A stretch of 64,000 bases of DNA, taken from an uncultured Gemmatimonadaceae bacterium. Lineage in GTDB: Bacteria; Gemmatimonadota; Gemmatimonadetes; Gemmatimonadales; Gemmatimonadaceae. The DNA lies in NCBI GenBank assembly GCA_963843965.1, contig CAWJMR010000021.1, positions 37,176 through 101,175 of the forward strand, given 5' to 3'. Shown here piece after piece: positions 10,205 through 26,294 of the stretch. Positions within the stretch are counted from its first letter, which is position 1; every line of letters starts with the position of its first letter. The position numbers and the translations under genes were made by a program. The notes under the pieces are model-generated. The model had not been told where the DNA came from, made no database searches, and was given only the letters and a program-made list of their open reading frames with translations.

Positions 10205-10303
10205 GAATGTAAGGTGTGCTGATCGGGCGGCATTGTACACCCACCGCTGGGTATGCTTCGTTGGTGATGCAGCGCACCGCGCCAGCGCAGCGGCCGCGCA
10301 TTC

Positions 10304-11787: not shown

Positions 11788-11798
11788 ATCACCTGTCC

Positions 11799-12512
11799 AT
11801 GACTTCACGGACCATCGAACTCACTCCACGCGCGACGTGGCTGACGGCACTGACCTGGTTGGCGCCGATTTTCCTCGTCATGTCGCAGGCCTATTTCATC
11901 ATGGCATCGGCCCCGGACCGCGACATGGGGCACTTACAGAAGATCATGTACGTGCATGTCCCTGCGGCCTGGAATGCGTTTCTGGCGTTCCTGTTCGTCT
12001 TCATACAGAGCGTGCGGTATCTCGCGACGCGCGACGAGCGTGCTGACCTCTTGGCGGCGGCTGGCGCCGAGGTCGGCGCCGTGCTCACCGGACTCACGCT
12101 GGTTCTGGGCTCCATCTGGGGACGCCCCACGTGGGGGGTGTGGTGGACGTGGGACGCGCGGCTCACCTCGACCGCGGTGCTGTTTCTGGTGTACGTGGGG
12201 TATCTCGCGCTGCGCGGCCTCACCGATGATCCCGAGCGTCGGGCACGCTGGAGCGCTGCCGTGGGCATTCTCGGCGCGCTGAACGTGCCCATCGTGTACA
12301 TGTCGGTGAAATGGTGGCGGACGTTGCATCAGATGCAGTCCACGCCGAGTACGGTCGATCCGACCTACGCGTGGGGGCTGCGTCTGAACGCCATCGCGTT
12401 TCTGCTGGTGCTCATCGTGTTCATCGCGTATCGGCATCGCGGACTCGTTGCGGAGTTCGTGCTCGAACGGCGGCTGGACGAAGCCGCGCTCACCCGGAGG
12501 ACGCAACGATGA
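11799..12512 (+). CDS. ccmC: Haem exporter / haem lyase subunit CcmC
   Basis: In-frame ATG at 11799 inside the long ORF 11118..12512 (MTSRTIELTP...). Trp-rich haem-handling motif WGRPTWGVWWTWDARL. Confidence 0.85.
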   Translation: MTSRTIELTPRATWLTALTWLAPIFLVMSQAYFIMASAPDRDMGHLQKIMYVHVPAAWNAFLAFLFVFIQSVRYLATRDERADLLAAAGAEVGAVLTGLTLVLGSIWGRPTWGVWWTWDARLTSTAVLFLVYVGYLALRGLTDDPERRARWSAAVGILGALNVPIVYMSVKWWRTLHQMQSTPSTVDPTYAWGLRLNAIAFLLVLIVFIAYRHRGLVAEFVLERRLDEAALTRRTQR

Positions 12513-12661
12513 ACGGGATGGTCGTCAACTCCTGGCCCTACGTGATCGGTGCGTTCGCCGTGACGTGGGTTGTGCTTATCGGCTACAGCATTCGCCTCGC
12601 GCAACTCGCGCGACTCACCCGTGCGCTGTCGGCGCCTTCTGATACCGGTACGAAGCAATGA
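12509..12661 (+). CDS. ccmD: Small membrane protein CcmD
   Basis: 50 aa, single TM (MNGMVVNSWPYVIGAFAVTWVVLIGYSI...). ATGA overlaps on both sides (ccmC stop, ccmE start). Confidence 0.7.
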   Translation: MNGMVVNSWPYVIGAFAVTWVVLIGYSIRLAQLARLTRALSAPSDTGTKQ

Positions 12662-13170
12662 GTGATGCTCCGAACGATCCGATGATCGATGTTGCGTCGA
12701 ACGCGCCGCGCTATACACCGTCGCCCTCGCGCAAACCCGTCGCCATCGCCGCGATCGTGGTGCTGGTCAGCGCCTTCGCCTATCTCGCCTACGGCGGCGT
12801 CGAGGAGAATCTGGTGTACTTCCTCACACCGAATGAGTTGGTGGCCAAGGGGGCAAAGGCCGTCGACCGACCGGTTCGTCTTGGCGGACAGGTCGTGCCC
12901 GGCTCGGTGCAGTGGAACGCCGATGCGTTGGACCTCCGCTTCCGCGTCACCGACGGCACGCGCGAAGTCGTGGTGCATTCGTCCGGGGCGCCGCCGCAGA
13001 TGTTCCGCGCCGGCATCGGTGTGGTTGTCGAGGGCAAGTACACGCGGAACGGCGTCTTCGAATCGCATAGCCTCATGGTGAAGCATTCCAACGAGTATCG
13101 CGCGCCCGTGGCCGGTGAGAAGCATCCGGATCGGCTCGACAAGACGCTGATCCGGAGTTCCGGCGCGTGA
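12658..13170 (+). CDS. ccmE: Haem chaperone CcmE
   Basis: 170 aa, N-terminal anchor, OB-fold-like body, C-terminal haem-binding context ...LMVKHSNEYRAP. Confidence 0.85.
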   Translation: MSDAPNDPMIDVASNAPRYTPSPSRKPVAIAAIVVLVSAFAYLAYGGVEENLVYFLTPNELVAKGAKAVDRPVRLGGQVVPGSVQWNADALDLRFRVTDGTREVVVHSSGAPPQMFRAGIGVVVEGKYTRNGVFESHSLMVKHSNEYRAPVAGEKHPDRLDKTLIRSSGA

Positions 13171-15125
13171 TTCGTATTCTTGGGCTCGCGGCCGTCTGGG
13201 TCGCGCTTGGGATGTCGGTCGCCGGCATTTTCGCGGCGATCTGGGGGCTGACCCGACAGCGCGCTGAACTGGTCACGAGTGCCTTTCAGACCGTCTACGT
13301 CAACTTCGCGCTCTTGACCGTAGCCGTGGCAGCGATGATCTACGCGCTCGTCACGCACGATTTCAGTATCGGTTACGTGGCGCAGGTCGGCAGTCGCAAC
13401 ACGCCGGTGTTCTACACGGTCATCTCGCTCTGGGGCGCGCTCGAAGGCTCGATCCTCTTCTGGGGATGGGTCCTCGCGATGTACAGCGCGGTGGTGGTGT
13501 GGAGCAATCGACAGCGGGAAGGCGGGCTCGTGCCGTGGGCCGCGGTCGCGCTGCTCACCATCTGCCTGTTCTTCTACATTCTGCTGGTCGGACCGGCCAA
13601 TCCGTGGCACCTCGTGTCGCCCACGCCGGCCGATGGCCCGGGGCCGAATCCGCTGCTGCAGAATCACATTCTGATGGCGGTTCATCCGCCGCTGCTCTAT
13701 CTCGGCTACGTGGGCATGGCGGTACCGTTCGCCTTTGCGATCGGCGCGCTGCTCGCCGGCGAGATTCACAGCGCCGACTGGATCAAGCTGACCCGTCGCT
13801 GGACGCTCAGCGCGTGGGCGTTTCTTTCGCTGGCCATCATCGCCGGCATGTGGTGGTCGTACGAGGTTCTTGGCTGGGGCGGCTACTGGGCGTGGGATCC
13901 CGTCGAGAACGCGTCGTTCATGCCGTGGCTCACGGCCACGGCTTTCCTGCACTCGGTCATGGTGCAGGAGCGGCGCGGCATGCTGAAGCTGTGGAATGTG
14001 AACCTGATCGTGACCACGTTCCTGCTCACGATTCTCGGCACCTTCCTCACGCGGTCCGGCATCATCTCCTCGGTGCACGCGTTCACGACCGGTACGATCG
14101 GCTACTACTTCCTGGCGTTCATTGCGTTCGCGCTGATCGTGTCGCTCGTGTTGGTGGCCGGCAACAGCGAAGGACTCCGGAGTGAAGGCCATCTCGACGC
14201 GGCGGCATCACGTGAGACCGTGTTCCTGTTCAACAATCTGTTTCTCACCGGCTTCACCTTCGTGGTGGTGCTCGGCACGCTGTTCCCGCTCGTCGCGGAA
14301 GCGTTCAAAGGCGTGAAGGTCACGGTCGGCGCGCCGTTCTTCAACAAGATGACGATCCCGATCTGCGTCGCGCTGCTGTTCTTGATGGGCGTCGGCCCGT
14401 CGCTGCCGTGGAAGGCAACGAGCCGCGAGCACTTGCGGAAGATGTTCATCCTGCCCGCTGGCGTGGCGCTCGGTATCGTGGTGCTCGCGCTCGCGCTCGG
14501 AATGCGCGACGTGTACGGTATGCTGGCGTTCGCGTTCGCGGGCTTCGCGATCGTGTGCAACGTGCGGGAGTATGCAATCGGCGTACAGGCGCGCCGCCGT
14601 GCGCACGGTGAGGCCGTACCCGTTGCCTTCGTGCGTTTGGTGGCCGCGAATCGCCGACGCTACGGTGGCTATGTCGCGCACATGGGAATCATCACGGTGG
14701 CCGCCGCCATCACGGCGTCGTCGAGCTTCCGCTTCGAGCGTGAGGCAACGCTCAAGCCGGGGCAGGTGATGCCGGTGAAGGGCGACCTGTCGGTGCGCCT
14801 GAAATCGATGTGGGGCAAGGACGAGCCGCAGCGTGAGGTGGTCGGCGCCGATGTGGAGATCCTTCGCAACGGCAAAGTGGTCGGCATGCTCGATCCACGC
14901 ATGAACTTCTACCGGTCGCAGGATCAGCCGGTGCCGACGCCGGCGGTGCGTAGCCGTCCGGCGGGCGACGTGTACATCAACCTCATGGCGTATACCCCCG
15001 ATGGACAGTCGGCGACGTTGCGGGTGATCGTCGAACCGTTCGTGCCGTGGATCTGGTTCGGCGGATTGGTCGTCGCACTTGGGGCTGTGGTCTCAGCATG
15101 GCCGGCGAGGAGGCGGGCGGTATGA
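13167..15125 (+). CDS. ccmF: Cytochrome c haem lyase subunit CcmF
   Basis: 652-aa polytopic protein with the Trp-rich motif WWSYEVLGWGGYWAWDPVEN. GTGA overlap with ccmE. Confidence 0.9.
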   Translation: MIRILGLAAVWVALGMSVAGIFAAIWGLTRQRAELVTSAFQTVYVNFALLTVAVAAMIYALVTHDFSIGYVAQVGSRNTPVFYTVISLWGALEGSILFWGWVLAMYSAVVVWSNRQREGGLVPWAAVALLTICLFFYILLVGPANPWHLVSPTPADGPGPNPLLQNHILMAVHPPLLYLGYVGMAVPFAFAIGALLAGEIHSADWIKLTRRWTLSAWAFLSLAIIAGMWWSYEVLGWGGYWAWDPVENASFMPWLTATAFLHSVMVQERRGMLKLWNVNLIVTTFLLTILGTFLTRSGIISSVHAFTTGTIGYYFLAFIAFALIVSLVLVAGNSEGLRSEGHLDAAASRETVFLFNNLFLTGFTFVVVLGTLFPLVAEAFKGVKVTVGAPFFNKMTIPICVALLFLMGVGPSLPWKATSREHLRKMFILPAGVALGIVVLALALGMRDVYGMLAFAFAGFAIVCNVREYAIGVQARRRAHGEAVPVAFVRLVAANRRRYGGYVAHMGIITVAAAITASSSFRFEREATLKPGQVMPVKGDLSVRLKSMWGKDEPQREVVGADVEILRNGKVVGMLDPRMNFYRSQDQPVPTPAVRSRPAGDVYINLMAYTPDGQSATLRVIVEPFVPWIWFGGLVVALGAVVSAWPARRRAV

Positions 15126-15754
15126 ACTGGAAACGATCGCTCATGACGGTGGCTGCTGTCGGCGTGCCCATTATCGCGTTGCTGTCGTACGGCATGACGC
15201 GCGACCCGCGCAGCATTCCGTCGCCGTTGCCAGGGCGCGCAGCACCCGTGTTCACGCGCGCCGTGTTCGCGCCGGGCGAAGATGCGACGCTCCGTCGCGC
15301 GGTCGGCGATTCGATCCGGCTGGCCGAGCACAAAGGCCAGATCGTGGTGGTCAACTTCTGGGCGTCGTGGTGTCTGGCCTGTCGCGACGAGCACGAGACG
15401 CTCTCGATGATTGCGCGTCGCTATGCGGGGCAGGGCGTGCGATTCTACGGGTTGCTGTACAACGATGAACCGAGCAACGGTATCAAGTGGATCGCGCAGA
15501 TGGGCGGGCAGGCGTATCCGGCGCTCGAAGATCCCAGTGCGCGCACGGCCATCGACTACGGGCTGTACGGCGTACCGGAAACATTCGTGGTGGATCAACG
15601 GGGAATCGTGGCCCACAAGTATCTCGGCCCCGTGCGCCCGGGCGAGCTGAGTCAGCTGCTCGACTCGCTGCTGACCGCCGGTGCGCGCTCCGGTGCACCG
15701 GCCACTGATGCGCCCGTCGTGCGCTCGCTTCCCTCGCCGGATTCTGCCCGATGA
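15122..15754 (+). CDS. ccmG: Thiol:disulfide oxidoreductase CcmG/DsbE
   Basis: In-frame ATG at 15122 (MNWKRSLMTVAAVGVPII...) overlaps the ccmF stop (ATGA). Thioredoxin motif WASWCLACRDE. Confidence 0.85.
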   Translation: MNWKRSLMTVAAVGVPIIALLSYGMTRDPRSIPSPLPGRAAPVFTRAVFAPGEDATLRRAVGDSIRLAEHKGQIVVVNFWASWCLACRDEHETLSMIARRYAGQGVRFYGLLYNDEPSNGIKWIAQMGGQAYPALEDPSARTAIDYGLYGVPETFVVDQRGIVAHKYLGPVRPGELSQLLDSLLTAGARSGAPATDAPVVRSLPSPDSAR

Positions 15755-16254
15755 AGACCACGCTGCGTCGTGGGCGGGTTGTCGCTGCGCTGTGGTGTGT
15801 CGCTGCGGCCGCGACGGTGCCACACGGCCTGCCGGCGCAAGACTCCGCATTGGCATCGAGCGCGCAAACGGTGGCCGGGAAGGCACCCGAGCCCGGCGTT
15901 GATCCGGCCTTCGACGAACGGGCGAAAGCGGTCACGTCGCGCTTGCGCTGCCCCGTCTGTCAGGGCGAATCGATTCAGGATTCGCCCGCCGAGCTGGCCA
16001 CCCAGATGAAATCGTTGGTGCGTGAGCAGCTGGCCAGCGGCAAGAGCGAGAAGGAGGTCTTCGACTACTTCATCGGCAAGTACGGACAGTGGATCCTGCT
16101 GGAACCGCGCGCCGAGGGCATCAATCTGCTCGTGTACGGACTGCCGATTCTGTTCATCGTGGGCGGCGGCGCGCTGCTGTGGGGGGCCGTGTCGCGATGG
16201 ACGCGCCCCGTAGCGCCGATGGGAGAAGATCCCGGAACGCTGCCCGACGATTAG
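15751..16254 (+). CDS. ccmH: Cytochrome c maturation protein CcmH
   Basis: Signal peptide, LRCPVCQGESIQDSPA motif, C-terminal TM. ATGA overlap with ccmG. Confidence 0.85.
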   Translation: MKTTLRRGRVVAALWCVAAAATVPHGLPAQDSALASSAQTVAGKAPEPGVDPAFDERAKAVTSRLRCPVCQGESIQDSPAELATQMKSLVREQLASGKSEKEVFDYFIGKYGQWILLEPRAEGINLLVYGLPILFIVGGGALLWGAVSRWTRPVAPMGEDPGTLPDD

Positions 16255-16709
16255 GCCGGCGGCTTCACCGCAGGATGGTCGAGCGGCAGGGCACCAGCCG
16301 CTTCGCCCCCCTTGTGATTCTTCACCGACGCCGTGTCGAGGAGTTCGCCGCCACCGTTGCGGATCGCCACCGCCTTCAGGGCGCTGTCGGCGAGGGCCGT
16401 GTTCTTCGTGGCCTGAGCGACCATGTAGATGCCGTACCACGGCGCCGCGTGATTCGGCACGGCGTCCGCGGCACCGCGATAGTAGCCGAGGGCGACGTCG
16501 TATTGCTTCACACGAAACGCCACGTTCCCGCTATCGAGCCGAGCGGCCGCGACGGCATTCAGTCCCGGCGGCAGCTCGCGCATCGGGCCCCCTCCGCCTT
16601 GGCTCGCGCTGAACTCGCCGAGCGGCTTCTTCGCCGCGTCCGACGCGTCGGACCCGCACGCGGTGATCGAGACCAGCAGGATGGGGAACGCGAGTATGGA
16701 GCGGCGCAT
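16251..16709 (-). CDS. Small lipoprotein with a TPR-like helix pair (last gene of the cytochrome operon)
   Basis: MRRSILAFPILLVSITACGS lipobox. An alternative start is M at 16730. Its stop codon overlaps the ccmH stop on the opposite strand (TTAG at 16251-16254). Confidence 0.5.
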   Translation of the reverse strand: MRRSILAFPILLVSITACGSDASDAAKKPLGEFSASQGGGGPMRELPPGLNAVAAARLDSGNVAFRVKQYDVALGYYRGAADAVPNHAAPWYGIYMVAQATKNTALADSALKAVAIRNGGGELLDTASVKNHKGGEAAGALPLDHPAVKPPA

Positions 16710-16764
16710 GGTGTGCAGGGGCAAGGTCATGAGTGAAGTGAACGGCGGCGCGCGCAGCGAGTCA

Positions 16765-18366
16765 TCAAAAGCGCCAGCTGAGTCCCGCGTAGTTCTGCAA
16801 CAGGCGGTCGGAGGGTCCAATTTCGCGGTACGACGAGAACATCACGTACCACGAGCGGCCAATGCCCGCGTCGGCGTCGAGCCCCACCCACGTGGTCTTC
16901 GTCGGGGTCATGCCATCGAACGCGCGCTGGTCGTCACGTCGGCCCACGGTCGCTTCGATACGCAGTCGATTCCACGGGTCGATCTCGAGCGATGCAGAGG
17001 TCAGCGTGCCGCGCACGGTGGGTCCGTCGTAGCGCGTGGCGCGGGCCCGGGCGCCGATCTGCAGCGGCGAGAGGCGTGAGATAGAGAGTGTCGCCGTCTG
17101 CGACTGGTTGCGCCCCGCGGTCACGCCATCGCTCGTGCGCGAGTCGACGCTCAGATACATGTGCGGAATCGAGAGGGACGCACCGCCCCAGTAGCCTCGG
17201 CGGAAGGCGTCATCGAAGGCGATGTCCGGCGTCAGGAAGTCGCGGTACAAGCGGACGCTGCGTCGACTGTCGTAGCCGCCCTGCAGCGAGAGCGCGCGCG
17301 TGACGGCGACGCGCAACGTGGCGAAGGTGGAGGTGGGCGAGATGGCCTGACCGCCTTCGGCATCCTTGCGCCAGCCGCGATTGACGTCGAGCTCCTGCGT
17401 GGCATACAGCGAGAAGACCGGCGTGACCACCATCGTCGAGGCCAGCGCGAATTCACGGTTGATGCCGGCGGTGGCGTACGATCCGATGGCCCCCAGCGTT
17501 GTCTGTACGATTGTGCCGCTGCCCGTCGAGTTGTGCCACTGCACCCACGTGCCGCCCTCACGGATATCAGCCGAGGGCTGGAAGTTCGCGTAGTCGGGCT
17601 GCGTGCCACCGAGCACGCCGAATCGCCAATGCTTGCGGTCGACGTCGACCGTGACGCCGTCGAAGAAGCCGAGTGGTGACAGGACCGTGGACAGCTGCCG
17701 GCCGACACTCACGCGCACCGGGAATTGTCCGACACCCTGATACTCCAGCATGGACTGGTACACGCGCGTGCTGCCGTCGGAGCGTCCGCTCCCCGAGGTC
17801 TGTCGGTGCGCGCGGGCGTCGATCACGAGTCCGATCGGCGAGTCGCTCAGGCGATGGCCCTCGATCCGGAGATCGACCGCCGGCTGGGTGAGCCGGCCAC
17901 TGGCTCCGGTGCCGGTTTGTAGATCCATGTAGCGCAGGCCGACGCGGCCCGTCATCGCGCGCGCTTTGCGCGGCGTTCGCGGTGTCGCGCCACCGGCGCC
18001 GGCCGCCGTACCAGTGGCTGCCGCCCCGCTCGCACTCGCGATGATCTCCGGCGCGGCCAGAAAACGCACGCTGTCACCGAGCACGATCGGACCGCCGCGG
18101 ATCGCGCGTCCCGAGGCGCGCGATGACGATACGAACTGAATCTCGAGCACCGCGACGACCGAGTCTTTTCGCATCACGTCGGCCTTCGCCCCTTCGCGAA
18201 GGCCGGAGCTGGTGCCCGCGTCGATGTACACGGATTCGCCGCTGAGATACGACACGCGCGTCCACTGCCAGCGCGGCGCGCTGGGGGCAGCCTGTGCCCC
18301 GAGCGCGTTGCCGACGACGCACGCGACCGCGAGGGCCGCGCTCAGGCCGAGCCGCGCGGGTGACAT
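16765..18366 (-). CDS. Predicted outer-membrane beta-barrel protein with a ~90-aa N-terminal soluble domain
   Basis: Signal peptide MSPARLGLSAALAVACVVGNALGAQA (ATG 18364-18366; ORF track extends to 18573). Alternating amphipathic strand pattern with many Y/R/G/T/S. C-terminus ...NYAGLSWRF ends in Phe, as in OM barrel signals. Confidence 0.65.
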   Translation of the reverse strand: MSPARLGLSAALAVACVVGNALGAQAAPSAPRWQWTRVSYLSGESVYIDAGTSSGLREGAKADVMRKDSVVAVLEIQFVSSSRASGRAIRGGPIVLGDSVRFLAAPEIIASASGAAATGTAAGAGGATPRTPRKARAMTGRVGLRYMDLQTGTGASGRLTQPAVDLRIEGHRLSDSPIGLVIDARAHRQTSGSGRSDGSTRVYQSMLEYQGVGQFPVRVSVGRQLSTVLSPLGFFDGVTVDVDRKHWRFGVLGGTQPDYANFQPSADIREGGTWVQWHNSTGSGTIVQTTLGAIGSYATAGINREFALASTMVVTPVFSLYATQELDVNRGWRKDAEGGQAISPTSTFATLRVAVTRALSLQGGYDSRRSVRLYRDFLTPDIAFDDAFRRGYWGGASLSIPHMYLSVDSRTSDGVTAGRNQSQTATLSISRLSPLQIGARARATRYDGPTVRGTLTSASLEIDPWNRLRIEATVGRRDDQRAFDGMTPTKTTWVGLDADAGIGRSWYVMFSSYREIGPSDRLLQNYAGLSWRF

Positions 18367-21300
18367 GAGAGGCAGGCGATGCTTTCGTAGCGGTAACCGC
18401 TTCGGCCCTGGTGCTGGCCGTCGGTCTTCGACTTCAGGTGGCACGACAGACAGGTGAACTCCCGATAGTTCGTGCTGTTCGTGTGACACTGTGTACACGA
18501 CGTCCACGTCTGGCGATGCTTGCCGCTGTAGATCGGGAACCACGGATCGTGATTGAAGGTGGCACCCAGCCAACGCGTGGTGGTATGGCAGCTCTCACAG
18601 GTAGTGGGGAACATCGCCGTGCGGTGATTCGGATTCGTCGTCGCGTTGTACGCTGGCGTGTGGCACGCGCTGCACACCGTGGGCTTTCCGCGATACACAC
18701 CATCGTTGTGACAGGCCAGACAGGTCTGTGCAATGTGCGCGCCCGTGAGCGGGAACCTGGTCGCGCTGTGATTGTACGCGGCCGGCGTCCACGCGGTGAC
18801 CGAGTGGCAGCTCTCACAGGTCGTGGGGAATGCCACGCTGCGATGATTCGGCTGCGACGTGGCATCGAACTTGGCCTGATGGCAGCTGACACACGTGGTC
18901 GGCTTGCCGCGATACACGCCATCACCATGGCAGCCCAGGCAACTCACCGCCCGATGTCCGCCCGCAAGCGGGAAGCGCGTGGCGTTGTGGTCGAAGGTCG
19001 CGGGCGTCCACGCGTTCACCGAATGACAGCTCTCGCAGGTATTCGGGAATCCTGACGCGCGATGATCGGGACGCGTTGTCGTGTTGAACTTCGTCTGATG
19101 ACAGCTGGCGCAATCGGTCGGCTTGCCACGATACACGTTGTCGGCGTGACAGCCCGCGCAACTCACCGCCCGATGTCCGCCAGCCAGAGGGAATCGCGTC
19201 GCGTTGTGGTCGAAGGTCGCGGGCGTCCACGCGTTCACCGAATGACAGCTCTCGCAGGTATTCGGGAAGCCCGACGCGCGATGATCGGGACGCGTCGTCG
19301 TGTTGAACTTCGTCTGATGACAGCTCGCGCAATCGGTCGGCTTGCCACGATACACGTTGTCGGCGTGACAGCCCGCGCAACTCACGGCACGATGTCCGCC
19401 AGCCAGAGGGAATCGCGTCGCGTTGTGGTCGAACGTGGCCGGCGCCCACGCATTCACGTTGTGGCAGCTCTCGCACGTGTTGGGGAAGCCGGATGTGCGA
19501 TGGTTCGGGTTCGTGGTCGCGTTGAACTTGGTTTGGTGGCAGCTGGCGCAATCGGTCGGCTTGCCACGATACACGTTGTCGGCGTGACAGCCCTGACAGC
19601 TTACGGCGCGGTGTCCGCCGGCGAGAGGGAAGCGGGTGGCGTTGTGGTCGAAGGTGGCGGGCTTCCAGGCGTTCACCGAGTGGCAGCTCTCGCACGTGCT
19701 CGGGAATGCAGAGGCGCGGTGATCCGGTGATTTCGCGCCATCATACTCGCGCTGATGGCACGACGCGCAGATACTCGGCTTGCCGGCGTACACCCGATCG
19801 TTGTGACAGGCGAGACAGGTGGCACTGATGTGGCGGCCGAGCAGCGGGAAGCGTGTCTTGTTGTGATCGTAGGTCGCGCCCTGCCACTGCGTGGTGCTGT
19901 GGCAGCTCTCACAGGCCGCGCCGAACTGGGCCGGGCCATGATGCGGGTTGGTGGTCGCGTCGAACTTGGCCTGATGGCAGCTGATGCATGTGGTCGGCTT
20001 GCCGCGGTACACCCCGTCGCTATGACAGGCGAGACAGCTGGCCGCGCGGTGTCCCCCGGTCAGCGGGAACCGGGTGTTCGCATGATCGAACGTGCCGGGC
20101 AGCCACGCGTTCACGGAGTGGCAGCCCTCGCAGGTCGTCGGAATACCCGCTGTCCGATGATTCGGTGTGGTCGTGGCGTTGAACTTGGCCTGGTGACACG
20201 ACACGCATGTCGTCGGCTTGCCGCGATAGACGCCGTCGCCATGGCAGCCCTGACAGGACACCGCGCCGTGGCCGCCGGTGAGCGGGAATCGGGTGGTGGC
20301 GTGATCGAAGCGCGCACCGGGCCATGCCGACGTGGTGTGGCAGCTTTCGCAGTTGGCGGAGAAACCCGCCGCCGCATGCGGTGGCGTGCGCGTACCGTCG
20401 AATTCCTTCTGATGACACGCGACGCAGGCCGTCGGCTTGCCGGCGTACACGCGATCGCTGTGACACGCGAGACAGGCTGCCGGCGTGTGCTTGCCGGTGA
20501 GCGGGAAGCGCGTCGTCTTGTGGTCGAACGGCGTGCCACGCCACTGCGTGGTGGTGTGACAGCTGGCGCAGGCGGTGCCGAACTTCGCCGGTCCGTGATG
20601 CGGCGTCGTGGTGGCGTCGAACTTGGCTTGATGACAGCTCACGCACGCCATCGGCTTCCCGCGATACACGCCGTCGCTATGGCACCCCTGACACGTCACG
20701 GCCTTGTGGCCACCGGTCAGCGGGAACTTCGTCGTGGCGTGATCGAACGTGGCGCTCGTCCACGTGGTGATCGTGTGGCAGGAGGTGCACTCCTTGGGAA
20801 AGCCGGCGGCCTCGTGATTGGGCGACTTGGTCGCCTGGTACGTGGCCAAATGACACGAGGCGCAGGCGGTGCCGCGCGCCTGAAATTGCGGCTGGCCGGG
20901 TCTGGTGGCGCCGTGACATGACTCGCAGGTCGCGATCGCGTGCGCACCACGCAACGGGAATCTCGTGCCTTGATGCGTGCGCACGGCGGTGCCGCGATCG
21001 ACGAAACTGCGCGTGTTATGACAGCGCACACAGGTGGCGCCGAACTCGCCCTTGTGCGGATCGGTATGGCAGCTGGCGCACGTCGTGGGCGTCTTCTTGA
21101 AATCGAGCTGCTTGTGGCACGACAGGCAGGTCGCCCGCTCGTGCGCTCCGGAGAGCGGGAACGTCTGCTCGGCGTGACGGAACGTCGGCGCGATGCGCGC
21201 CGGCGTCCAACTGTTCGACTTATGGCAACTGGCACACGGCTCGCGCAGGGCGGTTCCATGCGGCGAAACGACGGTCGACGCCGACGACGAGGCCGTCGGC

Positions 21301-21422
21301 GCGGTCGTCGGTGAAGCCACCGGCGGTTTCGTGACGGGGCGGAGCTGCGCGTGCGCGGTGTGCGCCACAACGCACATCGCGAGCGCGGACGCCGTCGTCA
21401 GAAGCCGCCGCCAGAACGTCAT
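18342..21422 (-). CDS. Giant multihaem c-type cytochrome, 40 CxxCH motifs
   Basis: Start ATG 21420-21422 overlaps the upstream stop (ATGA) and gives the signal peptide MTFWRRLLTTASALAMCVVAHTAHAQ. Manual count gives 40 CxxCH. Ten regular 73-aa modules each carry 3 CxxCH plus 3 conserved extra His (FDH, GGH, P[ND]H). Confidence 0.9.
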   Translation of the reverse strand: MTFWRRLLTTASALAMCVVAHTAHAQLRPVTKPPVASPTTAPTASSSASTVVSPHGTALREPCASCHKSNSWTPARIAPTFRHAEQTFPLSGAHERATCLSCHKQLDFKKTPTTCASCHTDPHKGEFGATCVRCHNTRSFVDRGTAVRTHQGTRFPLRGAHAIATCESCHGATRPGQPQFQARGTACASCHLATYQATKSPNHEAAGFPKECTSCHTITTWTSATFDHATTKFPLTGGHKAVTCQGCHSDGVYRGKPMACVSCHQAKFDATTTPHHGPAKFGTACASCHTTTQWRGTPFDHKTTRFPLTGKHTPAACLACHSDRVYAGKPTACVACHQKEFDGTRTPPHAAAGFSANCESCHTTSAWPGARFDHATTRFPLTGGHGAVSCQGCHGDGVYRGKPTTCVSCHQAKFNATTTPNHRTAGIPTTCEGCHSVNAWLPGTFDHANTRFPLTGGHRAASCLACHSDGVYRGKPTTCISCHQAKFDATTNPHHGPAQFGAACESCHSTTQWQGATYDHNKTRFPLLGRHISATCLACHNDRVYAGKPSICASCHQREYDGAKSPDHRASAFPSTCESCHSVNAWKPATFDHNATRFPLAGGHRAVSCQGCHADNVYRGKPTDCASCHQTKFNATTNPNHRTSGFPNTCESCHNVNAWAPATFDHNATRFPLAGGHRAVSCAGCHADNVYRGKPTDCASCHQTKFNTTTRPDHRASGFPNTCESCHSVNAWTPATFDHNATRFPLAGGHRAVSCAGCHADNVYRGKPTDCASCHQTKFNTTTRPDHRASGFPNTCESCHSVNAWTPATFDHNATRFPLAGGHRAVSCLGCHGDGVYRGKPTTCVSCHQAKFDATSQPNHRSVAFPTTCESCHSVTAWTPAAYNHSATRFPLTGAHIAQTCLACHNDGVYRGKPTVCSACHTPAYNATTNPNHRTAMFPTTCESCHTTTRWLGATFNHDPWFPIYSGKHRQTWTSCTQCHTNSTNYREFTCLSCHLKSKTDGQHQGRSGYRYESIACLSCHPRGSA
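18600..20789. repeat. In-frame tandem array of ten 219-bp (73-aa) tri-haem modules; copies at 19038-19256 and 19257-19475 are nearly identical
   Basis: Period measured directly: gaatgacagctctcgcaggtattcggga recurs at 19021 and 19240. The two youngest copies differ at roughly a dozen positions by eye and encode an identical 73-aa peptide except for one residue in the SVNAWTP/NVNAWAP stretch region. Confidence 0.85.
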
Positions 21423-23551
21423 AGCGCGCGCCCAGATCTGGCCGTGTGACAGCTTTCGCAGGCGCGTGACACGCCGGCGTACTGGCGACGCGCCGACTCG
21501 GGCGCGGTGGCGGCCGCACTGCCCGCCGGCGCGTTGATGGGGGCGTGACACTTGGCGCAGGGCACGGTGCTGTGCGCACCAGCCAGCGGGAACCGCGTGC
21601 CCTTCTCATGATCGAACTTGTCCGCACCAGCGAATCGTGCCACGGAATGACACGACTCGCAGGCACCGCGATCCCGACGGGTCGCGAACTGCGTGCCGTG
21701 TGATTCCGCGTGGCACCCGGTGCAGCTGGCGCCGCGTGACTGCGCGAAGGGCAAGGCGGGCTGCGCCACGGCCGACAAGCGAAGGGAGCCACGGCCGGCG
21801 GTCGCGGCGAGTTCCCGGTGGCAGTCAGCGCAGGGCACTGCGCGATGGGCGCCCTCGAGCGCGTAGCCGAGGGTGGTGTGGGTGGCCGTGGTGACTGTGG
21901 AGGGGCGGAACCGTGCGGTCTGATGACAGCTGGTGCATGCCGTCGTGGCGCGCGCGCCACCGGCCACGTAGCGCCCGGCGTGCGGGTCGGCGTGACACGA
22001 CGCACAGGTCGTCTCTCCGATCGCGAACGCGAACTTCGCCCGCCCCGTGGGCAGGGTGATCGCGGGTAATCCGCGCCGATCGCTGGCATGACAGGCCGCG
22101 CAGACCGCCGTCGCATGGGCACCGTCGAGCGGCAGTTTGAACGTGGCGTGCGACGCAACCGTAATCGTGCTCGGCTTGAATCCGTTCACCGTGTGACACG
22201 ACGTGCAGCCGCCGGCGGCATTGCGCACGGCTGGCTGGTTGGCGTGGTCATCGGCGTGGCACGAGGTGCACGACTCGGTCGCCATCGTGAGCCGCACGTA
22301 CGACGCCGCTGGCACCATCAGACCAGCCGTCGTCGCGGCCGCCGTCGTCGCGGCGACGCGGGTCATGGTGTGGCAGGCCGCGCACTTCGTGCTCACATGC
22401 TTGCCTTCGAGGGGGTAGCGCGTCCGCGCGTGTTCGGCGACGGAGAAGCTCGCTGGGCTGAAGCCTGCGACTTTGTGGCAGCTCGCGCAGTCACGCGTGC
22501 GGCCTGCTTCGCCACGATGCACGTCCGCGTGGCAGCTGGCACAGCTGGTGAACGCGGGCGTCGGGCGGTCGTTGTTCTTGCCGTGGCACGCGGCACAGCC
22601 GACCCGCGCATGACGCCCGGCCAGCGGGTATCGCGTGGCGTCGTGATTGAAGCCCTTCTTGTCGATCGCCTCCCAGCGCGTGGTCTCGTGGCACGAGCTG
22701 CAGGATTCCTTGATGCGTCCTTTGTGCGGATCGCTGTGGCAGTCGTTGCACTTCGCGAACGTGATGGGACGGAACAGCGGAATCGTCTTCCCCTCAGCGT
22801 CTCGCTTGAGCGGAAGGCGATTCGAACGGTGACACCCGTCGCATTTCACGTCGGTGTGCTTGCCGGTGAGCGGATAGCGGGCGTCGTCGTGATTGAACGC
22901 CGGCGCCGGTGCCCAGGCTTTCGCGTTGTGGCACTGCTGACAGCCGCCCTTGAGCGCCCCCTCGTGAATATCCTCACGTTGATGGCAGCTGGCGCACGCC
23001 GTCTCCAACCCGACCCACGGCGTGCCCGTCTTGCGTTTGGAGATGGCCGCCATCGCCGGCGCGCGAAACGCCGTCTTGTGGCACGACTCGCATTTGGCCT
23101 CGACGTGCTTTCCTTCGAGCGCCCATCCGGCTTGTCGGTGGTCGAACCGGTTCTTCCCGCCCGCCGGCCACGACACCATCGCGAAGTCTTCGCCGGCGTG
23201 ATCCGGATGACAGCTGGCGCAGTTCGTGCGCTCGGCCGCCGGCAGCTTGGCGTGATAGCCCCGCTTCGCGTCGATCAGCGCCTTGACGTCCTTGTGGCAG
23301 CTGAGACAGGACGGCGCCATCGCGGCACCGCGCGTGAGCGAATGACATTGCACGCACTGCGCTGCGCCTTCGAGACTCTTGTGCGCGCGCGCCAGCGGGC
23401 CCGGCGAGATCTGGGCCGACAGCAGTGTGGGACGCGACAGCACGAGCATCCCTAGCATGGCGAAAACCAGCGCGACCACACGCCGCAGCCGCGTGCGCCA
23501 ACGGTGCGCCGGAAGGCACACAGCGGAGAGCGGACGCGGCATGTCATTCAT
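21419..23551 (-). CDS. Multihaem c-type cytochrome, 23 CxxCH motifs
   Basis: 710 aa. Signal/anchor ...RRVVALVFAMLGMLVLSRPTLLSAQ. Manual count gives 23 CxxCH, many in CxxCH-x-D/E-x-H-x-G contexts. The start ATG overlaps the upstream TGA (ATGA at 23548-23551). Confidence 0.9.
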   Translation of the reverse strand: MNDMPRPLSAVCLPAHRWRTRLRRVVALVFAMLGMLVLSRPTLLSAQISPGPLARAHKSLEGAAQCVQCHSLTRGAAMAPSCLSCHKDVKALIDAKRGYHAKLPAAERTNCASCHPDHAGEDFAMVSWPAGGKNRFDHRQAGWALEGKHVEAKCESCHKTAFRAPAMAAISKRKTGTPWVGLETACASCHQREDIHEGALKGGCQQCHNAKAWAPAPAFNHDDARYPLTGKHTDVKCDGCHRSNRLPLKRDAEGKTIPLFRPITFAKCNDCHSDPHKGRIKESCSSCHETTRWEAIDKKGFNHDATRYPLAGRHARVGCAACHGKNNDRPTPAFTSCASCHADVHRGEAGRTRDCASCHKVAGFSPASFSVAEHARTRYPLEGKHVSTKCAACHTMTRVAATTAAATTAGLMVPAASYVRLTMATESCTSCHADDHANQPAVRNAAGGCTSCHTVNGFKPSTITVASHATFKLPLDGAHATAVCAACHASDRRGLPAITLPTGRAKFAFAIGETTCASCHADPHAGRYVAGGARATTACTSCHQTARFRPSTVTTATHTTLGYALEGAHRAVPCADCHRELAATAGRGSLRLSAVAQPALPFAQSRGASCTGCHAESHGTQFATRRDRGACESCHSVARFAGADKFDHEKGTRFPLAGAHSTVPCAKCHAPINAPAGSAAATAPESARRQYAGVSRACESCHTARSGRAL

Positions 23552-24990
23552 CCCGCCTTGGCAACGTCACGCGGAATGGGCACGTTTTTCTCGACGATGC
23601 GCACACCGATCTTCTCCAGAAACGCCGACGGTGCTTCACCGCCGATGCGCACGATCACCGTATCGTTCGGCAAAATCGCCGTCGCGCCATGATCGTCGAT
23701 GACGACGACGTCACGCCGGATTTCCCGCACCTGGCTCTGCAGCATCGGAATGATGCGTCCCGCCGCGATCGCGCGATCGAGCTTCTCCTGATTGCGTGGC
23801 TTGATGCGCGAGAACGTCTCGCCGCGATAGCTCAGGCGGACTTCGGTATTCGGTTGATTCGCGAGTCCGAGCGCCGATTCCACCGCGCTGTCGCCGCCAC
23901 CCACCACCATCACCTTCTGACCGGCAAACGCTTCCATCTCCACGATGTCGAAATACACCTTGTCGCTGTCTTCACCGGGGATGCCGAGGCGTCGTGGCGT
24001 GCCGCGACGGCCCATGGCGAGCACCACGCGGCGCGCCCGGTAGCGCGCGCCGTCGGACATCACATCGAAGAAGGCGCCATCGCGCACCACGCGATCCACT
24101 TTGACGCCGGTGCGCACCTCGAGGCCGGTGTTGGCCACGATCGTCTCCCACACTTCAAGCAGCGTTTCCTTCGATGCATCGGCAATCCAGAGATCACCGT
24201 ACAGCGGGATGGAGACCGGCTCGGCGAGCAGCAGCTTCTTGCGCGGATACTTGCGGACCGTGTCCGACAGCGTGCCCTGCTCGAGCACGACATAACGGAG
24301 GTGCGAGCGAAGCGCTTCCAAGCCCGCGCTCAACCCGGCCGGTCCGGATCCGATGATGCACACGTCGAAGGCCTCCAGATCGCCATCGGTGCGCGGCTCG
24401 CAGCTGGGCAACTGCGTCGCGATGTGTTCGATGGCCATCTTGCCCTCGTTGATCGCGTTCTTGATCAGTCCGCGACCACCGAGTTCGCCCACGATGTAGA
24501 TGCCCGGCACGTTCGACTGGAAATGCGCGTCGATCAGCGGCACCTCCACGCGATTGACGGCGGCACCCGTGGTCACGAAGATGCCGCCCACCGGGCAGGC
24601 GGCGACGCACTCGCCATGCCCGACACACAAGGCATCATCCACCACGGCCAGCTTGCCGCGCATCGTGATGGCCCCGACTTCTGGGCAGGACGCGACGCAG
24701 GTGCCACAGCCCACGCAGAGGTCCGCCCGCACCATGGCCTTCGGGAGCGCGTCGCCGACCGATGCGGCGCGACCGGCGGCAACGGGCGCCGACACGACCT
24801 CGAAGAGTTGCTGCGCGATACCACACCCGGAGCAGTACGTGCCGGTCACCGGAACCGCCGTCCCGCACCGCGCGCACGGCCGCGTCGCCACTGGCCGCGC
24901 GGGCGCATCGGCGGGCGGCGCGCTCCCGCGCAGATGCCACCACATGAACGCGGCCGTCAGCGCGAAGAAACCGAGGGTGGTCAGCAGCAT
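23548..24990 (-). CDS. Membrane-anchored zinc-ribbon / 2x Fe-S ferredoxin / FAD-NAD(P)H oxidoreductase
   Basis: N-terminal TM (LLTTLGFFALTAAFMWW), zinc ribbon CARCGTAVPVTGTYCSGCG, one canonical CVGCGTCVASCP motif and one His-substituted CVGHGECVAACP motif. Then two dinucleotide folds (DVCIIGSGPAGLSAG; KVMVVGGGDSAVESA), thioredoxin-reductase/YpdA-like. Confidence 0.8.
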   Translation of the reverse strand: MLLTTLGFFALTAAFMWWHLRGSAPPADAPARPVATRPCARCGTAVPVTGTYCSGCGIAQQLFEVVSAPVAAGRAASVGDALPKAMVRADLCVGCGTCVASCPEVGAITMRGKLAVVDDALCVGHGECVAACPVGGIFVTTGAAVNRVEVPLIDAHFQSNVPGIYIVGELGGRGLIKNAINEGKMAIEHIATQLPSCEPRTDGDLEAFDVCIIGSGPAGLSAGLEALRSHLRYVVLEQGTLSDTVRKYPRKKLLLAEPVSIPLYGDLWIADASKETLLEVWETIVANTGLEVRTGVKVDRVVRDGAFFDVMSDGARYRARRVVLAMGRRGTPRRLGIPGEDSDKVYFDIVEMEAFAGQKVMVVGGGDSAVESALGLANQPNTEVRLSYRGETFSRIKPRNQEKLDRAIAAGRIIPMLQSQVREIRRDVVVIDDHGATAILPNDTVIVRIGGEAPSAFLEKIGVRIVEKNVPIPRDVAKAG

Positions 24991-24999
24991 GTCAGGCGC

Positions 25000-25929
25000 T
25001 CACCAGAACCACGTGGCACCCATCACGATGACCACGACCACGTGGATCGTGACCGCGATCAGGGCAGTGAGCGCGAACGGCATGTGGGCTACATGCCAGA
25101 AGCGAAACACGCGCTGCGTGGCTTCGAGCATGCGCGACTGATCGGTCAGCGCCATTTCACGCGACGCGAGCTTCACCGCACGAGAAATGGCGCGCCGGTC
25201 GACACCCGGGCGCGCAGCCCACGTCGAGGCGAGCCGACGCACGTGGACAAACCGCCGCAGGTCATTCAACACCAGGCGCTCGAGCACCTGGACCACACTC
25301 GTGGCCGGCGCCTGCTCGACCGGCGTGATCGCGAGTCGCACGGTATTCACCGAATCCCCGAGGGCCGCGGCAATCTCGGCCAGCAGCGCGTCGCGCTCGC
25401 CGGCCACTTCGTCGCGCGAGAGCTCCACGCCGCTGCGCGCGCGCGGGATCCGGACATAGAGGTACCGGCCGACCACGCCGCTCGCGCACACCACCAGCAT
25501 CGCGCCGAACCCCAGACCGATCACGCCATCGGCCCGCCAGGCGGCGTGAATCGTGAGCAGCAAGGGTAGCCCGATCGCGGTGGTCACGTGCACATCGAGC
25601 CATCGCCCGATCGCGCCGGTAAAGGCGAGCGCCCGCCAGCGCTTCCGGAGGGGATAGAGCCAGAGGAACACGAAGATGACGAACGCGAGGATACCGGCGG
25701 TTTGGCCGATCGTGCCGGACGGCCGGAGCAGCGCGTGCAGCGCGTGCCGCGGCCGCGCGTTCAACGGCGCCAAATAGTACGACGCGCCCGCCAGGTTGAT
25801 CATCGTCAACGCGCTCAAGAGCAGCGTGACGGGCACGCCATCCCATCGGCTCCGTGCCTTCGCCGCGCGCGCCGCCGTAGGGACAGGACGCGTGGCGGTA
25901 CGCGGAATTGAAGGAGCGGGCGCGGTCAT
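25000..25929 (-). CDS. Polytopic membrane protein with two H-x13-H pairs (putative di-haem b-type electron carrier)
   Basis: About five predicted TM helices. One helix reads DVHVTTAIGLPLLLTIH and another reads WHVAHMPFALTALIAVTIH, each with His residues 14 positions apart. A ~130-aa soluble loop lies between them. 9-nt gap to the flavoprotein gene. An alternative start lies at 25974. Confidence 0.6.
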   Translation of the reverse strand: MTAPAPSIPRTATRPVPTAARAAKARSRWDGVPVTLLLSALTMINLAGASYYLAPLNARPRHALHALLRPSGTIGQTAGILAFVIFVFLWLYPLRKRWRALAFTGAIGRWLDVHVTTAIGLPLLLTIHAAWRADGVIGLGFGAMLVVCASGVVGRYLYVRIPRARSGVELSRDEVAGERDALLAEIAAALGDSVNTVRLAITPVEQAPATSVVQVLERLVLNDLRRFVHVRRLASTWAARPGVDRRAISRAVKLASREMALTDQSRMLEATQRVFRFWHVAHMPFALTALIAVTIHVVVVIVMGATWFW

Positions 25930-26294
25930 GGCGGAGAGATCAACGGAGGAGAGTCTATGCGGCTGGTGACGCAAAAAGCACCAGTCGGAACTAAAGGGGA
26001 GTCGTAAATACGCCTTTTGTCCCAGTTTCTATCCGAACTTATACGGATGGGCGCGGTAGGTATGTAACGTCCATCACGGTTTTCCTTCGGGTTTTTCAAT
26101 CTCGACAATAAGACGTCTTGTCCCTCACCGACGTCACGCTCGCCGCGGGGTCGCGAGACAGTCTGCGCGCCCGGCGTGACGGTGGACCGTCCCATACATC
26201 GTCATACCACGTCGCACCAAACGACTCGCCTAGCACGGCCCGTGCAGTAGACTTGTACCTCTGCCCGGACCTTCCAATCAGCCAGGATCTGCCT

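Follow-up and report, generated by a model that had tools for sequence, protein, structure and literature searches.

The question raised by the 64-kb window (the whole stretch of DNA that was analysed) is whether its six-gene minus-strand operon encodes a conduit carrying electrons across the cell envelope and, if so, where those electrons would enter at the inner membrane. The operon, in order of transcription, and its convergent neighbour comprise the following features:

25000..25929, minus strand: g1, inner-membrane protein (IMP), 309 aa from ATG; predicted five-TM di-haem-b carrier
23548..24990, minus strand: g2, Zn-ribbon, ferredoxin domain with two Fe-S clusters and FAD-NAD(P)H two-Rossmann flavoprotein, 480 aa
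21419..23551, minus strand: g3, 23-CxxCH multihaem cytochrome c, 710 aa; predicted periplasm-spanning wire
18342..21422, minus strand: g4, 40-CxxCH multihaem cytochrome c, 1026 aa; predicted extracellular wire
18784..20749, minus strand: tandem 219-bp modules (73 aa, three-haem) inside g4, found with TRF
16765..18366, minus strand: g5, 22-strand outer-membrane β-barrel (533 aa) preceded by a periplasmic β-domain at its N-terminus
16251..16730, minus strand: g6, small lipoprotein with lipobox ITAC
10304..16254, plus strand: System I cytochrome c maturation operon, convergent (ccmA, B, C, E, F, G-like, H)

All six co-directional ORFs of a preliminary description of this DNA were present, with GC3 typical of coding sequence (0.80–0.84), and its account of the gene junctions proved accurate: start and stop codons overlap as ATGA twice (23548-23551 and 21419-21422), a 9-nt gap separates g1 from g2 (24991-24999), and a 25-nt overlap joins g5 (ATG at 18366) to g4 (stop at 18342-18344), g2 thereby having the gap on its 5' side and an ATGA overlap on its 3' side. 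At the far end, g6 (TAA 16251-16253) overlaps the stop of ccmH (TAG 16252-16254), as had been described. The start of g1 is ambiguous between ATG at 25929 and TTG at 25974, to which the ORF reaches. The reported CxxCH counts were exact (23 in g3 and 40 in g4, giving 63 c-haems in total), and the motif was found in no other plausible ORF of the 64-kb window. In a synteny check of co-conservation, g3, g4 and g5 occurred together in 45 of the 46 loci with enough flanking sequence. The operon is real and conserved widely, and its 63 c-haems would form a 'wire' in the cell envelope.

The two cytochromes differ in how tightly their size is held. Pfam matches of g3 are to Cytochrome_C7, c3 and MtrC-domain models, its signal-peptide junction A-Q-[IL]-SPGxL is conserved, and its haem count is kept at 23 (range 20–23) across Gemmatimonadota, Emticicia, Aquirufa, Saprospiraceae and locus L082. 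In g4, a signal-like N-terminus is followed by a Pro/Thr/Ser linker (export signals and the lipobox were judged by eye from the sequence), and the repeats with period 219 form two runs, 4.3 copies matching at 84% (18784-19727) and then 4.5 copies matching at 67% (19775-20749). Homologues of g4 carry from 13 to 70 CxxCH motifs, among them a 40-haem Emticicia protein to which it is 41% identical. A constant haem number in g3 alongside a variable one in g4 fits a fixed-distance periplasmic span and a free extracellular extension, respectively.

Modelling bore out the suggestion that g5 is barrel-like: the AF2 model (pLDDT 87.4, pTM 0.70) has a β-domain at residues 33-103 and 22 strands at 139-532, and its Foldseek matches in the PDB were solely outer-membrane barrels, among them ushers, Occ porins and, in 47th place, MtrB (6r2q_B). 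A Pfam search of g5 gave no match. The protein does end in ...GLSWRF, and the terminal LSWRF is conserved in the family consensus. By comparison with these components g6 is a peripheral, poorly conserved member and not a conserved feature of the system; it shows weak, sub-threshold similarity to TPR proteins, its homologues occur solely in the closest relatives (L002, L004 and L005), and Emticicia and Aquirufa have a non-homologous GW-domain lipoprotein at its position. The ccm neighbourhood is likewise context rather than a conserved component; L002, the closest relative, is the only one to retain it beside the conduit operon. Pfam matches (ABC_tran, CcmB, Cytochrom_C_asm, CcmE, CcmF_C, Redoxin and CcmH) support A, B, C, E, F, a G-like gene and H of what had been called a full ccmA-H operon; ccmD was not identified. 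In its parts list, the operon matches a trans-envelope electron conduit.

The preliminary description went further, stating that no system of this composition was known. This claim is not supported: in content and order, four of the genes match the published PCC3, a porin-cytochrome cluster which He et al. (2017, Front Microbiol 8:1584, PMC5566968) defined by sequence analysis in Proteobacteria, with examples in Sideroxydans lithotrophicus ES-1 (Slit_1446-1449, also in PMC11429942 and PMC8788666, and Slit_0867-0870) and Leptothrix cholodnii SP-6. Proteobacterial PCC3 is described as four genes, and those of Sideroxydans ES-1 are down-regulated on Fe(II). Judged by described parts, order and motifs, the likeness extends from the arrangement of Slit_1446-1449 (IMP, periplasmic cytochrome, extracellular cytochrome, porin) to the individual components: PCC3 periplasmic cytochromes have 21-27 haems (23 in g3), the extracellular ones 10-63 (40 in g4), both systems have repeat-rich cytochromes with few residues per haem, and the L. 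cholodnii porin has 22 predicted transmembrane regions, against 22 strands in g5. Two differences stand out. The hosts here are Gemmatimonadota, Bacteroidota and other non-proteobacterial lineages, whereas those of PCC3 are Proteobacteria, and nearly all loci here add a membrane-anchored Fe-S flavoprotein. The PCC3 literature examined (He et al. 2017 and the Slit_1446-1449 papers) makes no mention of such a partner; within that literature the flavoprotein alone is unreported, the PCC3 core having already been described by sequence analysis.

The IMP itself bears every published PCC3-IMP motif (~300 aa, five TM helices, SGxxG on TM4 and WX3HX13H on TM3 and TM5), which in g1 appear as S150GxxG154, W110x3H114x13H128 and W278x3H282x13H296. 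It was overstated to call the protein His-rich (10 His in 324 aa); six of these residues are nonetheless strongly conserved, H65, H128, H279, H282 and H296 being invariant and H114 at least 90% conserved among 114 sequences. The AF2 model is all-helical (pLDDT 78.6), with a predicted cytoplasmic helical domain of ~110 aa, and charges follow a positive-inside distribution; the resulting topology places one His of each 13-apart pair on each membrane face. The family comprises 2367 clusters at 50% identity (E<=1e-3), and g1 matched no Pfam or NCBIfam family, no PDB sequence and, by Foldseek, no known fold (best E 0.63). From these motifs, g1 is predicted to bind two b-haems, as He et al. 2017 (PMC5566968) predict for the PCC3 IMP, likening its His pattern to the ferric-reductase domain and proposing electron exchange with quinones.

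The partner of g1 has a composite architecture. A hydrophobic N-terminal helix anchors g2 in the membrane and is joined to a Zn-ribbon (CxxC-x10-CxxC), two conserved ferredoxin-type motifs (CxxCxxCxxxCP and CxxHxxCxxxCP; Pfam Fer4_10, 1.5e-9) and a flavin domain (Pfam Pyr_redox_3, 1.2e-41, 143 bits) in which GGGDSA is conserved and the FAD 'GD-type' segment stands before the first Rossmann fold. Its nearest solved relatives are TrxR-like proteins, YpdA and TrxR-type ferredoxin-NADP reductases. The YpdA and TrxR models score only 163 bits against a cut-off of 340 and 73 bits against 343, respectively, and inspection of the sequence found no redox-active CxxC in the flavin domain.

Of 77 informative Gemmatimonadota loci, 75 contain this flavoprotein together with the IMP, with g2 adjacent (46 loci), divergent within 4.5 kb (27) or otherwise present (2). 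The two exceptions, L005 and L013, have no flavoprotein gene in the surrounding 8-10 kb although the IMP, the cytochromes and the barrel are all retained; the flavoprotein is thus not strictly required in cis. Outside Gemmatimonadota, all 10 informative sampled contexts have the flavoprotein with the IMP in shuffled gene orders, and carriers include the cultured Emticicia oligotrophica, in which the genes are plasmid-borne, and an Aquirufa isolate; in L089, ferredoxin and flavoprotein are split into two genes. The recurrence of the pairing across phyla sustains the earlier proposal that the flavoprotein and a (putatively b-type) membrane protein form a module.

Parts of this design recur in other systems. 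In NOX/FRE enzymes and E. coli Fre-MsrQ, electrons from NAD(P)H pass via flavin to two b-haems across the membrane; the proposed logic here is alike, with two b-haems, His pairs 13 apart on two helices and a far-side acceptor, but g1 has five helices instead of six and neither a PF01794 nor a fold match, the flavoprotein is TrxR-like and two-Rossmann with a ferredoxin domain as opposed to FNR-type, and the acceptor would be a 63-haem wire through a second membrane. Listeria Ndh2-EetAB-PplA, reportedly described by Light et al. in 2018, is said to carry out flavin-based extracellular electron transfer. It shares a dedicated NADH-oxidising flavoenzyme feeding an extracellular route apart from aerobic respiration, but runs through a quinone (DMK) and, in a monoderm cell, a flavinylated lipoprotein, without multihaem cytochromes, porin or di-haem-b carrier. 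MtrCAB/MtoAB (Shewanella, Sideroxydans) and Geobacter Omb-Oma-Omc/Ext likewise combine a periplasm-side cytochrome in an outer-membrane barrel with a surface cytochrome, and the MtrC-domain and c7 matches of g3 and g4 and the presence of MtrB among the g5 fold matches echo this. However, they have 10 + 10 (or 8 + 12) haems rather than 23 + 40, all decahaem NCBIfam models fall far below their cut-offs on the operon's cytochromes, and MtrB has 26 strands compared with 22 in g5, which has no sequence-family match. Their feeders are the quinol-oxidising c-type cytochromes CymA, ImcH and CbcL; the preliminary description rightly reported none, and in the window we found no NapC/CymA/ImcH/CbcL-like gene and no c-type quinol dehydrogenase. 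He et al. 2017 (PMC5566968) also describe PCC4 and, in Supplementary Table 6, clusters of the type 'multihaem cytochrome + HX13H IMP + other redox protein', where an IMP with the same motif adjoins an Fe-S protein or 'another redox protein' of 412-805 aa, so that pairing of IMP and redox partner had already been noticed for sister groups; the cytochromes of these clusters are small (4-10 haems), an extracellular cytochrome or porin is missing, and the IMPs are reported as non-homologous to those of PCC3.

We propose, at what we judge to be about an even chance, that the operon is a PCC3-type conduit with a dedicated cytoplasmic electron-input module. In the order suggested by topology and cofactor motifs, g2, tethered by one helix at the inner membrane face, would oxidise NAD(P)H at its FAD and pass electrons through its two Fe-S clusters to g1. 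There, a pair of stacked b-haems, the cytoplasmic one ligated by H114/H282 and the periplasmic one by H128/H296, would take them across the membrane. The 23-haem g3 would then carry them across the periplasm into the 22-strand barrel g5, and the modular 40-haem g4, reaching out from the cell surface, would hand them to an acceptor that is either insoluble or macromolecular (such as Fe(III)/Mn(IV) oxides, humics or possibly O2), the net direction being outward. In the canonical PCC3 model (He et al. 2017), the IMP would instead be a quinone-active cytochrome b connecting the quinone pool with extracellular Fe/Mn, possibly inward for metal oxidation, and the flavoprotein an accessory (poising, repair, regulation or a second, conditional donor) rather than the main entry. 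We consider this somewhat unlikely, despite its standing as the published model, the occurrence of PCC3 in Fe(II)/Mn(II) oxidisers, the four-gene make-up of proteobacterial PCC3 and the intact conduits of L005 and L013: evidence for a quinone site was not found, and a dispensable accessory is hard to square with near-universal linkage over at least two named phyla and several further lineages, despite shuffling and domain splitting. The named hosts also speak against it, as Emticicia, Aquirufa, Saprospiraceae and Gemmatimonas-like bacteria are aerobic heterotrophs, none of which is known to oxidise metals.

Being organoheterotrophs, these hosts also argue against electron uptake, whereby low-potential donors (cathodes, Fe(0), reduced minerals, humics) would feed cytochromes, b-haems, Fe-S clusters and, via g2, NAD(P)+, yielding cytoplasmic reductant directly. 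Such a cofactor chain is reversible in principle, and PCC3 is mostly discussed as an electron-uptake system; inward electrons would, however, oppose the membrane potential, and reduction of NAD(P)+ (~-320 mV) by Fe(II)-type donors would be strongly uphill with no energy-coupling subunit encoded, making this direction improbable. More doubtful still, and disfavoured as highly improbable, is that g1 and g2 merely neighbour a porin-cytochrome cluster, g2 having an unrelated cytoplasmic redox role such as that of a thiol/bacillithiol-type reductase. The affinity of its flavin domain to YpdA/TrxR-type enzymes points that way, but the sub-cut-off scores, the missing CxxC, the membrane anchor and fused ferredoxin domain, the persistence of g2-IMP synteny over phyla and arrangements, and the translational coupling of g2 on both sides all argue against it.

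If wiring of the conduit to NAD(P)H by the flavoprotein module is correct, the path would avoid the quinone pool. Being electrogenic in the depolarising direction, it would not act as a coupling site; its role in these bacteria would be that of an electron sink or of an extracellular reductase.

The six co-directional minus-strand genes reported for this window in the preliminary description (g1 to g6 in transcription order) are borne out by translation, junction positions and base composition. At a window G+C of ~67%, third-position GC is 0.80–0.84 in all six ORFs, matching real genes here, and the junctions are exactly as described, with two ATGA overlaps, a 9-nt gap and a 25-nt overlap. Beyond g3 and g4, no CxxCH was found in any further plausible ORF of the 64-kb window. 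The features are as follows:

25000–25929 (or to 25974), minus strand: g1, a polytopic membrane protein by translation
23548–24990, minus strand: g2, hydrophobic N-terminus, CxxC-x10-CxxC, two ferredoxin-type Cys motifs and a two-Rossmann flavoprotein
21419–23551, minus strand: g3, cytochrome with 23 CxxCH
18342–21422, minus strand: g4, cytochrome with 40 CxxCH
18784–20749, minus strand: tandem array inside g4, 219-bp units (73 aa) with three CxxCH each
16765–18366, minus strand: g5, signal peptide and C-terminus GLSWRF
16251–16730, minus strand: g6, lipobox ITAC
26118–26912, plus strand: SodC, a Cu/Zn superoxide dismutase

The SodC gene lies divergent upstream of g1, which is therefore the first gene of the operon; a scan for promoters and terminators returned signals no better than in shuffled sequence. 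SodC was rejected as a linked partner, its adjacency to g1 being conserved only in the two closest relatives (loci L001 and L002) and probably coincidental; it would be a neighbour worth noting if the conduit discussed below reduces O2. At its other end the operon converges on a System I haem-attachment operon (ccmA, B, C, E, F, a G-like gene and H), and the stop codons of g6 and ccmH do overlap. Adjacency to ccm is retained solely in the closest relative, L002, and was likewise rejected as a feature of the system. Divergent from ccmA is a gene for a 304-aa double zinc-ribbon protein (9326–10240, minus strand).

The closest published counterpart is PCC3, a type of porin–cytochrome c gene cluster that He et al. 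2017 (PMC5566968) defined from the genomes of Proteobacteria, iron oxidisers among them. Two of its four products are multihaem cytochromes, one extracellular with a median of 34 haems (up to 63) and one periplasmic with a median of 21 (21–27 in Gallionellaceae). The others are a porin and an inner-membrane protein (IMP) of ~300 aa with five transmembrane helices (TM), in which SGxxG lies on TM4 and WX3HX13H on each of TM3 and TM5; a pair of b-haems was proposed for this IMP (PMC5566968). The genes of Sideroxydans ES-1 run from the IMP (Slit_1446) through a periplasmic 24-haem and an extracellular 28-haem cytochrome to the porin, and the cluster was down-regulated there on Fe(II). Later PCC3 papers describe four genes, and the type is still termed functionally unverified in papers of 2025–2026.

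The product of g1 fits the PCC3 description of the IMP in length, helix number and motif placement (~300 aa, five TM, SGxxG on TM4, WX3HX13H on TM3 and TM5), the motifs being W110x3H114x13H128, S150GxxG154 and W278x3H282x13H296. It matched no family in Pfam (E ≤ 0.1) or NCBIfam; its AF2 model, made of helices (pLDDT 78.6), had no Foldseek match in the PDB (best E 0.63), and a profile of the IMP family returned chance matches only against all PDB sequences. Membership of the ferric-reductase-domain/NOX type (PF01794) or of cytochrome b561/Ni_hydr_CYTB (PF01292) was rejected for want of a profile or fold match, two relatives of g1 scoring below threshold (19 bits against a cut-off of 28 for PF01794, 19.4 against 30.1 for PF01292). 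The distribution of charge places the N-terminus, the TM2–3 loop and a ~110-aa helical domain in the cytoplasm. Judged from sequence, this would put H114 and H282 close to the inner face of the membrane and H128 and H296 close to the outer one, as expected of a wire that crosses the membrane on two haems.

Both cytochromes match c7, c3 and MtrC-domain families in Pfam. Neither is of the decahaem MtrA/DmsE or MtrC/OmcA types, given haem counts of 23 and 40 rather than 10 and scores for g3 and g4 beneath the NCBIfam cut-offs (TIGR03508, 44 and 64.6 bits against 192.2; TIGR03507, 47 and 41 bits against 209.3). The 23 CxxCH of g3, presumably periplasmic, fall inside the PCC3 periplasmic range of ~21–27, and the 40 of g4, presumably at the cell surface, fall within the range of 10–63 for the second cytochrome. 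Across Gemmatimonadota the first cytochrome carries 23 CxxCH in nearly all loci (range 20–23; best 80 of 452), and homologues of g4 carry from 13 to 70. The 3′ copies of the g4 array match at 84%, which suggests recent duplication of the module. An invariant 23 haems paired with a freely varying second cytochrome fits a fixed periplasmic span and an extensible surface wire; that 21–27 haems could span the periplasm is already held possible in the PCC3 literature.

That g5 encodes an outer-membrane barrel, as the preliminary description proposed, is upheld by its AF2 model (pLDDT 87.4), a small N-terminal β-domain and a 22-strand barrel whose Foldseek matches were outer-membrane barrels only, with MtrB at rank 47. 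Like g1, g5 matched no family in Pfam or NCBIfam; the PCC3 porin of L. cholodnii is likewise predicted to have 22 membrane strands. Homologues of the g6 lipoprotein are confined to the closest relatives. In L082 (6202–9183), a locus from a lineage outside Gemmatimonadota, the barrel protein has an N-terminal AMIN domain and a ~350-aa low-complexity linker, and a conserved 273-aa protein of no known family is encoded between barrel and IMP; a similar 268-aa gene lies upstream of the IMP in locus L086.

In motifs, haem numbers, barrel and gene order the operon thus agrees with all published descriptive criteria of PCC3, a likeness of described traits. It departs from the four-gene composition, which has no further redox subunit, by the addition of g2, a gene that sits between those for the IMP and the first cytochrome and is translationally coupled. 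We therefore retain with considerable confidence the earlier interpretation of a trans-envelope conduit, now as one of PCC3 type, and withdraw the claim that the system lacks a described precedent, since a conduit with a putative di-haem-b entry protein has been published as PCC3. He et al. 2017 (PMC5566968) record ‘another redox protein’ next to IMPs that share the motifs, in PCC4 and in further clusters that, unlike PCC3, lack a porin; FAD, flavoprotein and pyridine nucleotide are terms that the paper does not use. Literature searches on 23/40-haem pairs, or on this cluster in Emticicia or Gemmatimonadota, turned up no relevant paper. What appears to be new is the Fe–S flavoprotein partner, the spread across phyla, the constant count of 23 haems and the occurrence in cultured aerobes.

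Named homologues of g1 and g5 all belong to Gemmatimonadaceae or Gemmatimonadota. A scan of a genome collection yielded 452 confirmed g1 relatives, and the best 80 of these 452 loci were analysed. Within these 80, downstream sequence of 9 kb or more was available for 46 loci, in 45 of which g3, g4 and g5 follow in order, and a flavoprotein is kept in 75 of 77 informative loci (three were uninformative): g2 is directly downstream of g1 in 46, a paralogous flavoprotein with the TM anchor but lacking the Zn ribbon is divergent upstream in 27, and two further loci have another arrangement. The two exceptions, L005 and L013 from Gemmatimonadales MAGs, have no flavoprotein gene within 8–10 kb; consisting of an IMP, a 23-haem cytochrome, a 58–70-haem cytochrome and a barrel, they look like the four-gene proteobacterial PCC3.

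Outside Gemmatimonadota, plasmids searched by tblastn with g1 and g3 returned one match, the 100-kb plasmid pEMTOL02 of Emticicia oligotrophica DSM 17448. The genes after ccsA on this plasmid encode, in turn, an IMP with 31% identity, an ‘NAD(P)-binding’ protein with 36%, cytochromes with 23 and then 40 CxxCH (41% for the latter), a hypothetical protein of 538 aa with 24% identity to g5, and a lipoprotein with a GW domain. The gene directly 5′ of the IMP in Emticicia and Aquirufa is a fused ResB/CcsA gene; behind a ResB/CcsA gene the same block recurs in an Aquirufa isolate, with 23 and 37 haems, and in a Saprospiraceae MAG, with 23, 68 and 12, and Emticicia aquatica, checked for the IMP only, has it. 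In type-B Gemmatimonadota loci, a paralogue of the CcmE-domain haem chaperone follows the divergent flavoprotein gene (L045, 7889–8311, minus strand; also L042, L056, L059, L060, L062–L064 and L069), with 32–35% identity to the CcmE of the window. With CcmE paralogues in type B and ResB/CcsA in Emticicia and Aquirufa, differing cytochrome-maturation genes are therefore found repeatedly in association with the cluster.

A profile search of 1.84 billion representatives recovered 2367 IMP clusters (50% identity) at E ≤ 1e-3, and the Bacteroidota branch of the family numbers over 7000 relatives. Of 99 full-length representatives, 87 carry SGxxG together with both His motifs. An Fe–S flavoprotein was encoded next to or near the IMP in every informative context sampled (L082, L085, L086, L087, L089, L092 and L093), as were multihaem cytochromes wherever the contig was long enough, in differing gene orders; in L089 ferredoxin and flavoprotein are separate genes. 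Among the 150 representatives listed by the IMP family search, all those sampled were flavoprotein-linked. Apparent fusions of IMP with flavoprotein (P0261, P0252, P0249) and of porin with IMP (P0353) were rejected as Rosetta-stone evidence because Arg/Gly/Pro-rich wrong-frame stretches separate their parts, marking them as frameshifted metagenomic gene calls.

The flavoprotein itself matches Pyr_redox_3 (1.2e-41) and 4Fe–4S dicluster domains in Pfam, and its nearest solved structures are TrxR-like enzymes, YpdA and TrxR-type ferredoxin–NADP reductases. We rejected a YpdA/Bdr bacillithiol-disulfide reductase (TIGR04018, 162.9 bits against a cut-off of 339.9) and a thioredoxin reductase (TIGR01292, 72.7 against 343.45), the flavin domain having no redox-active CxxC; beyond the YpdA/TrxR layout, g2 has an extra TM anchor, Zn ribbon and ferredoxin domain. 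Constant across phyla are the TM anchor followed by basic residues, CxxCxxCxxxCP, CxxHxxCxxxCP, GGGDSA and a C-terminal-type FAD segment ahead of the first Rossmann fold. The protein appears to be circularly permuted: its FAD segment NVPGIYIVGELGG (residues ~160–172) precedes the first Rossmann motif (residues 209 onward) and aligns to positions ~290–334 of lipoamide dehydrogenase-type models, and a segment of this kind normally closes TrxR/GR-type enzymes. CxxHxxCxxxCP, with His for the second Cys (residues ~122–133, window 24585–24620), recurs at the same position in L081, L082, L085, L087, L047 and L021. As a motif it suggests a His-ligated 4Fe–4S or 3Fe–4S cluster, possibly the exit cluster toward a membrane haem; the Emticicia flavoprotein has Ser at the equivalent place in the first ferredoxin motif. 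The basic residues after the anchor, and cofactor domains without an export signal, indicate that these domains face the cytoplasm, with the Fe–S domain at most ~65 residues from the membrane.

Electrons would pass from NAD(P)H to FAD and Fe–S within g2, then by way of two b-haems of g1 to the 23-haem g3, and through the barrel g5 to the 40-haem g4 and an external acceptor, a path that we infer from the parts. On standard bioenergetics, flow outward from NAD(P)H would be downhill and flow inward to NAD(P)+ would not, so an extracellular reductase or electron sink is favoured. Its chief competitor is the model of He et al., which is linked to quinones and in which the flavoprotein would be an accessory; the two flavoprotein-less loci, L005 and L013, support it. 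We regard the chances of the full flavoprotein-fed model as evenly balanced. The boldest reading, put forward tentatively as one that may well prove wrong, takes IMP and Fe–S flavoprotein to be two parts of a split NAD(P)H dehydrogenase, NOX-like and independent of quinones, that feeds 63 c-haems across periplasm and outer membrane. If true, it would mean unrecognised direct extracellular reduction from cytoplasmic NAD(P)H by common aerobic heterotrophs (soil and sludge Gemmatimonadota, freshwater Cytophagales and Saprospiraceae), with particulate Fe(III)/Mn(IV), humics, or O2 (to superoxide) as candidate substrates, and the four-gene proteobacterial PCC3 would be its flavoprotein-less relative.

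PCC3-type clusters encode some of the largest multihaem cytochromes known, none with an assigned function. The type is abundant outside Proteobacteria, there with a dedicated NAD(P)H-type Fe–S flavoprotein, and occurs in aerobic strains available in culture (Emticicia oligotrophica DSM 17448, an Aquirufa isolate and, judged by its IMP only, Emticicia aquatica), which makes the feeding of giant cytochrome wires, and the direction in which electrons travel along them, experimentally approachable. If the flavoprotein is the entry point, these clusters would let electrons from cytoplasmic NAD(P)H reach the surface of diderm cells while bypassing quinones, which in oxic soils, fresh waters and activated sludge would matter for iron acquisition, for redox balancing and for the reduction of minerals or humics.
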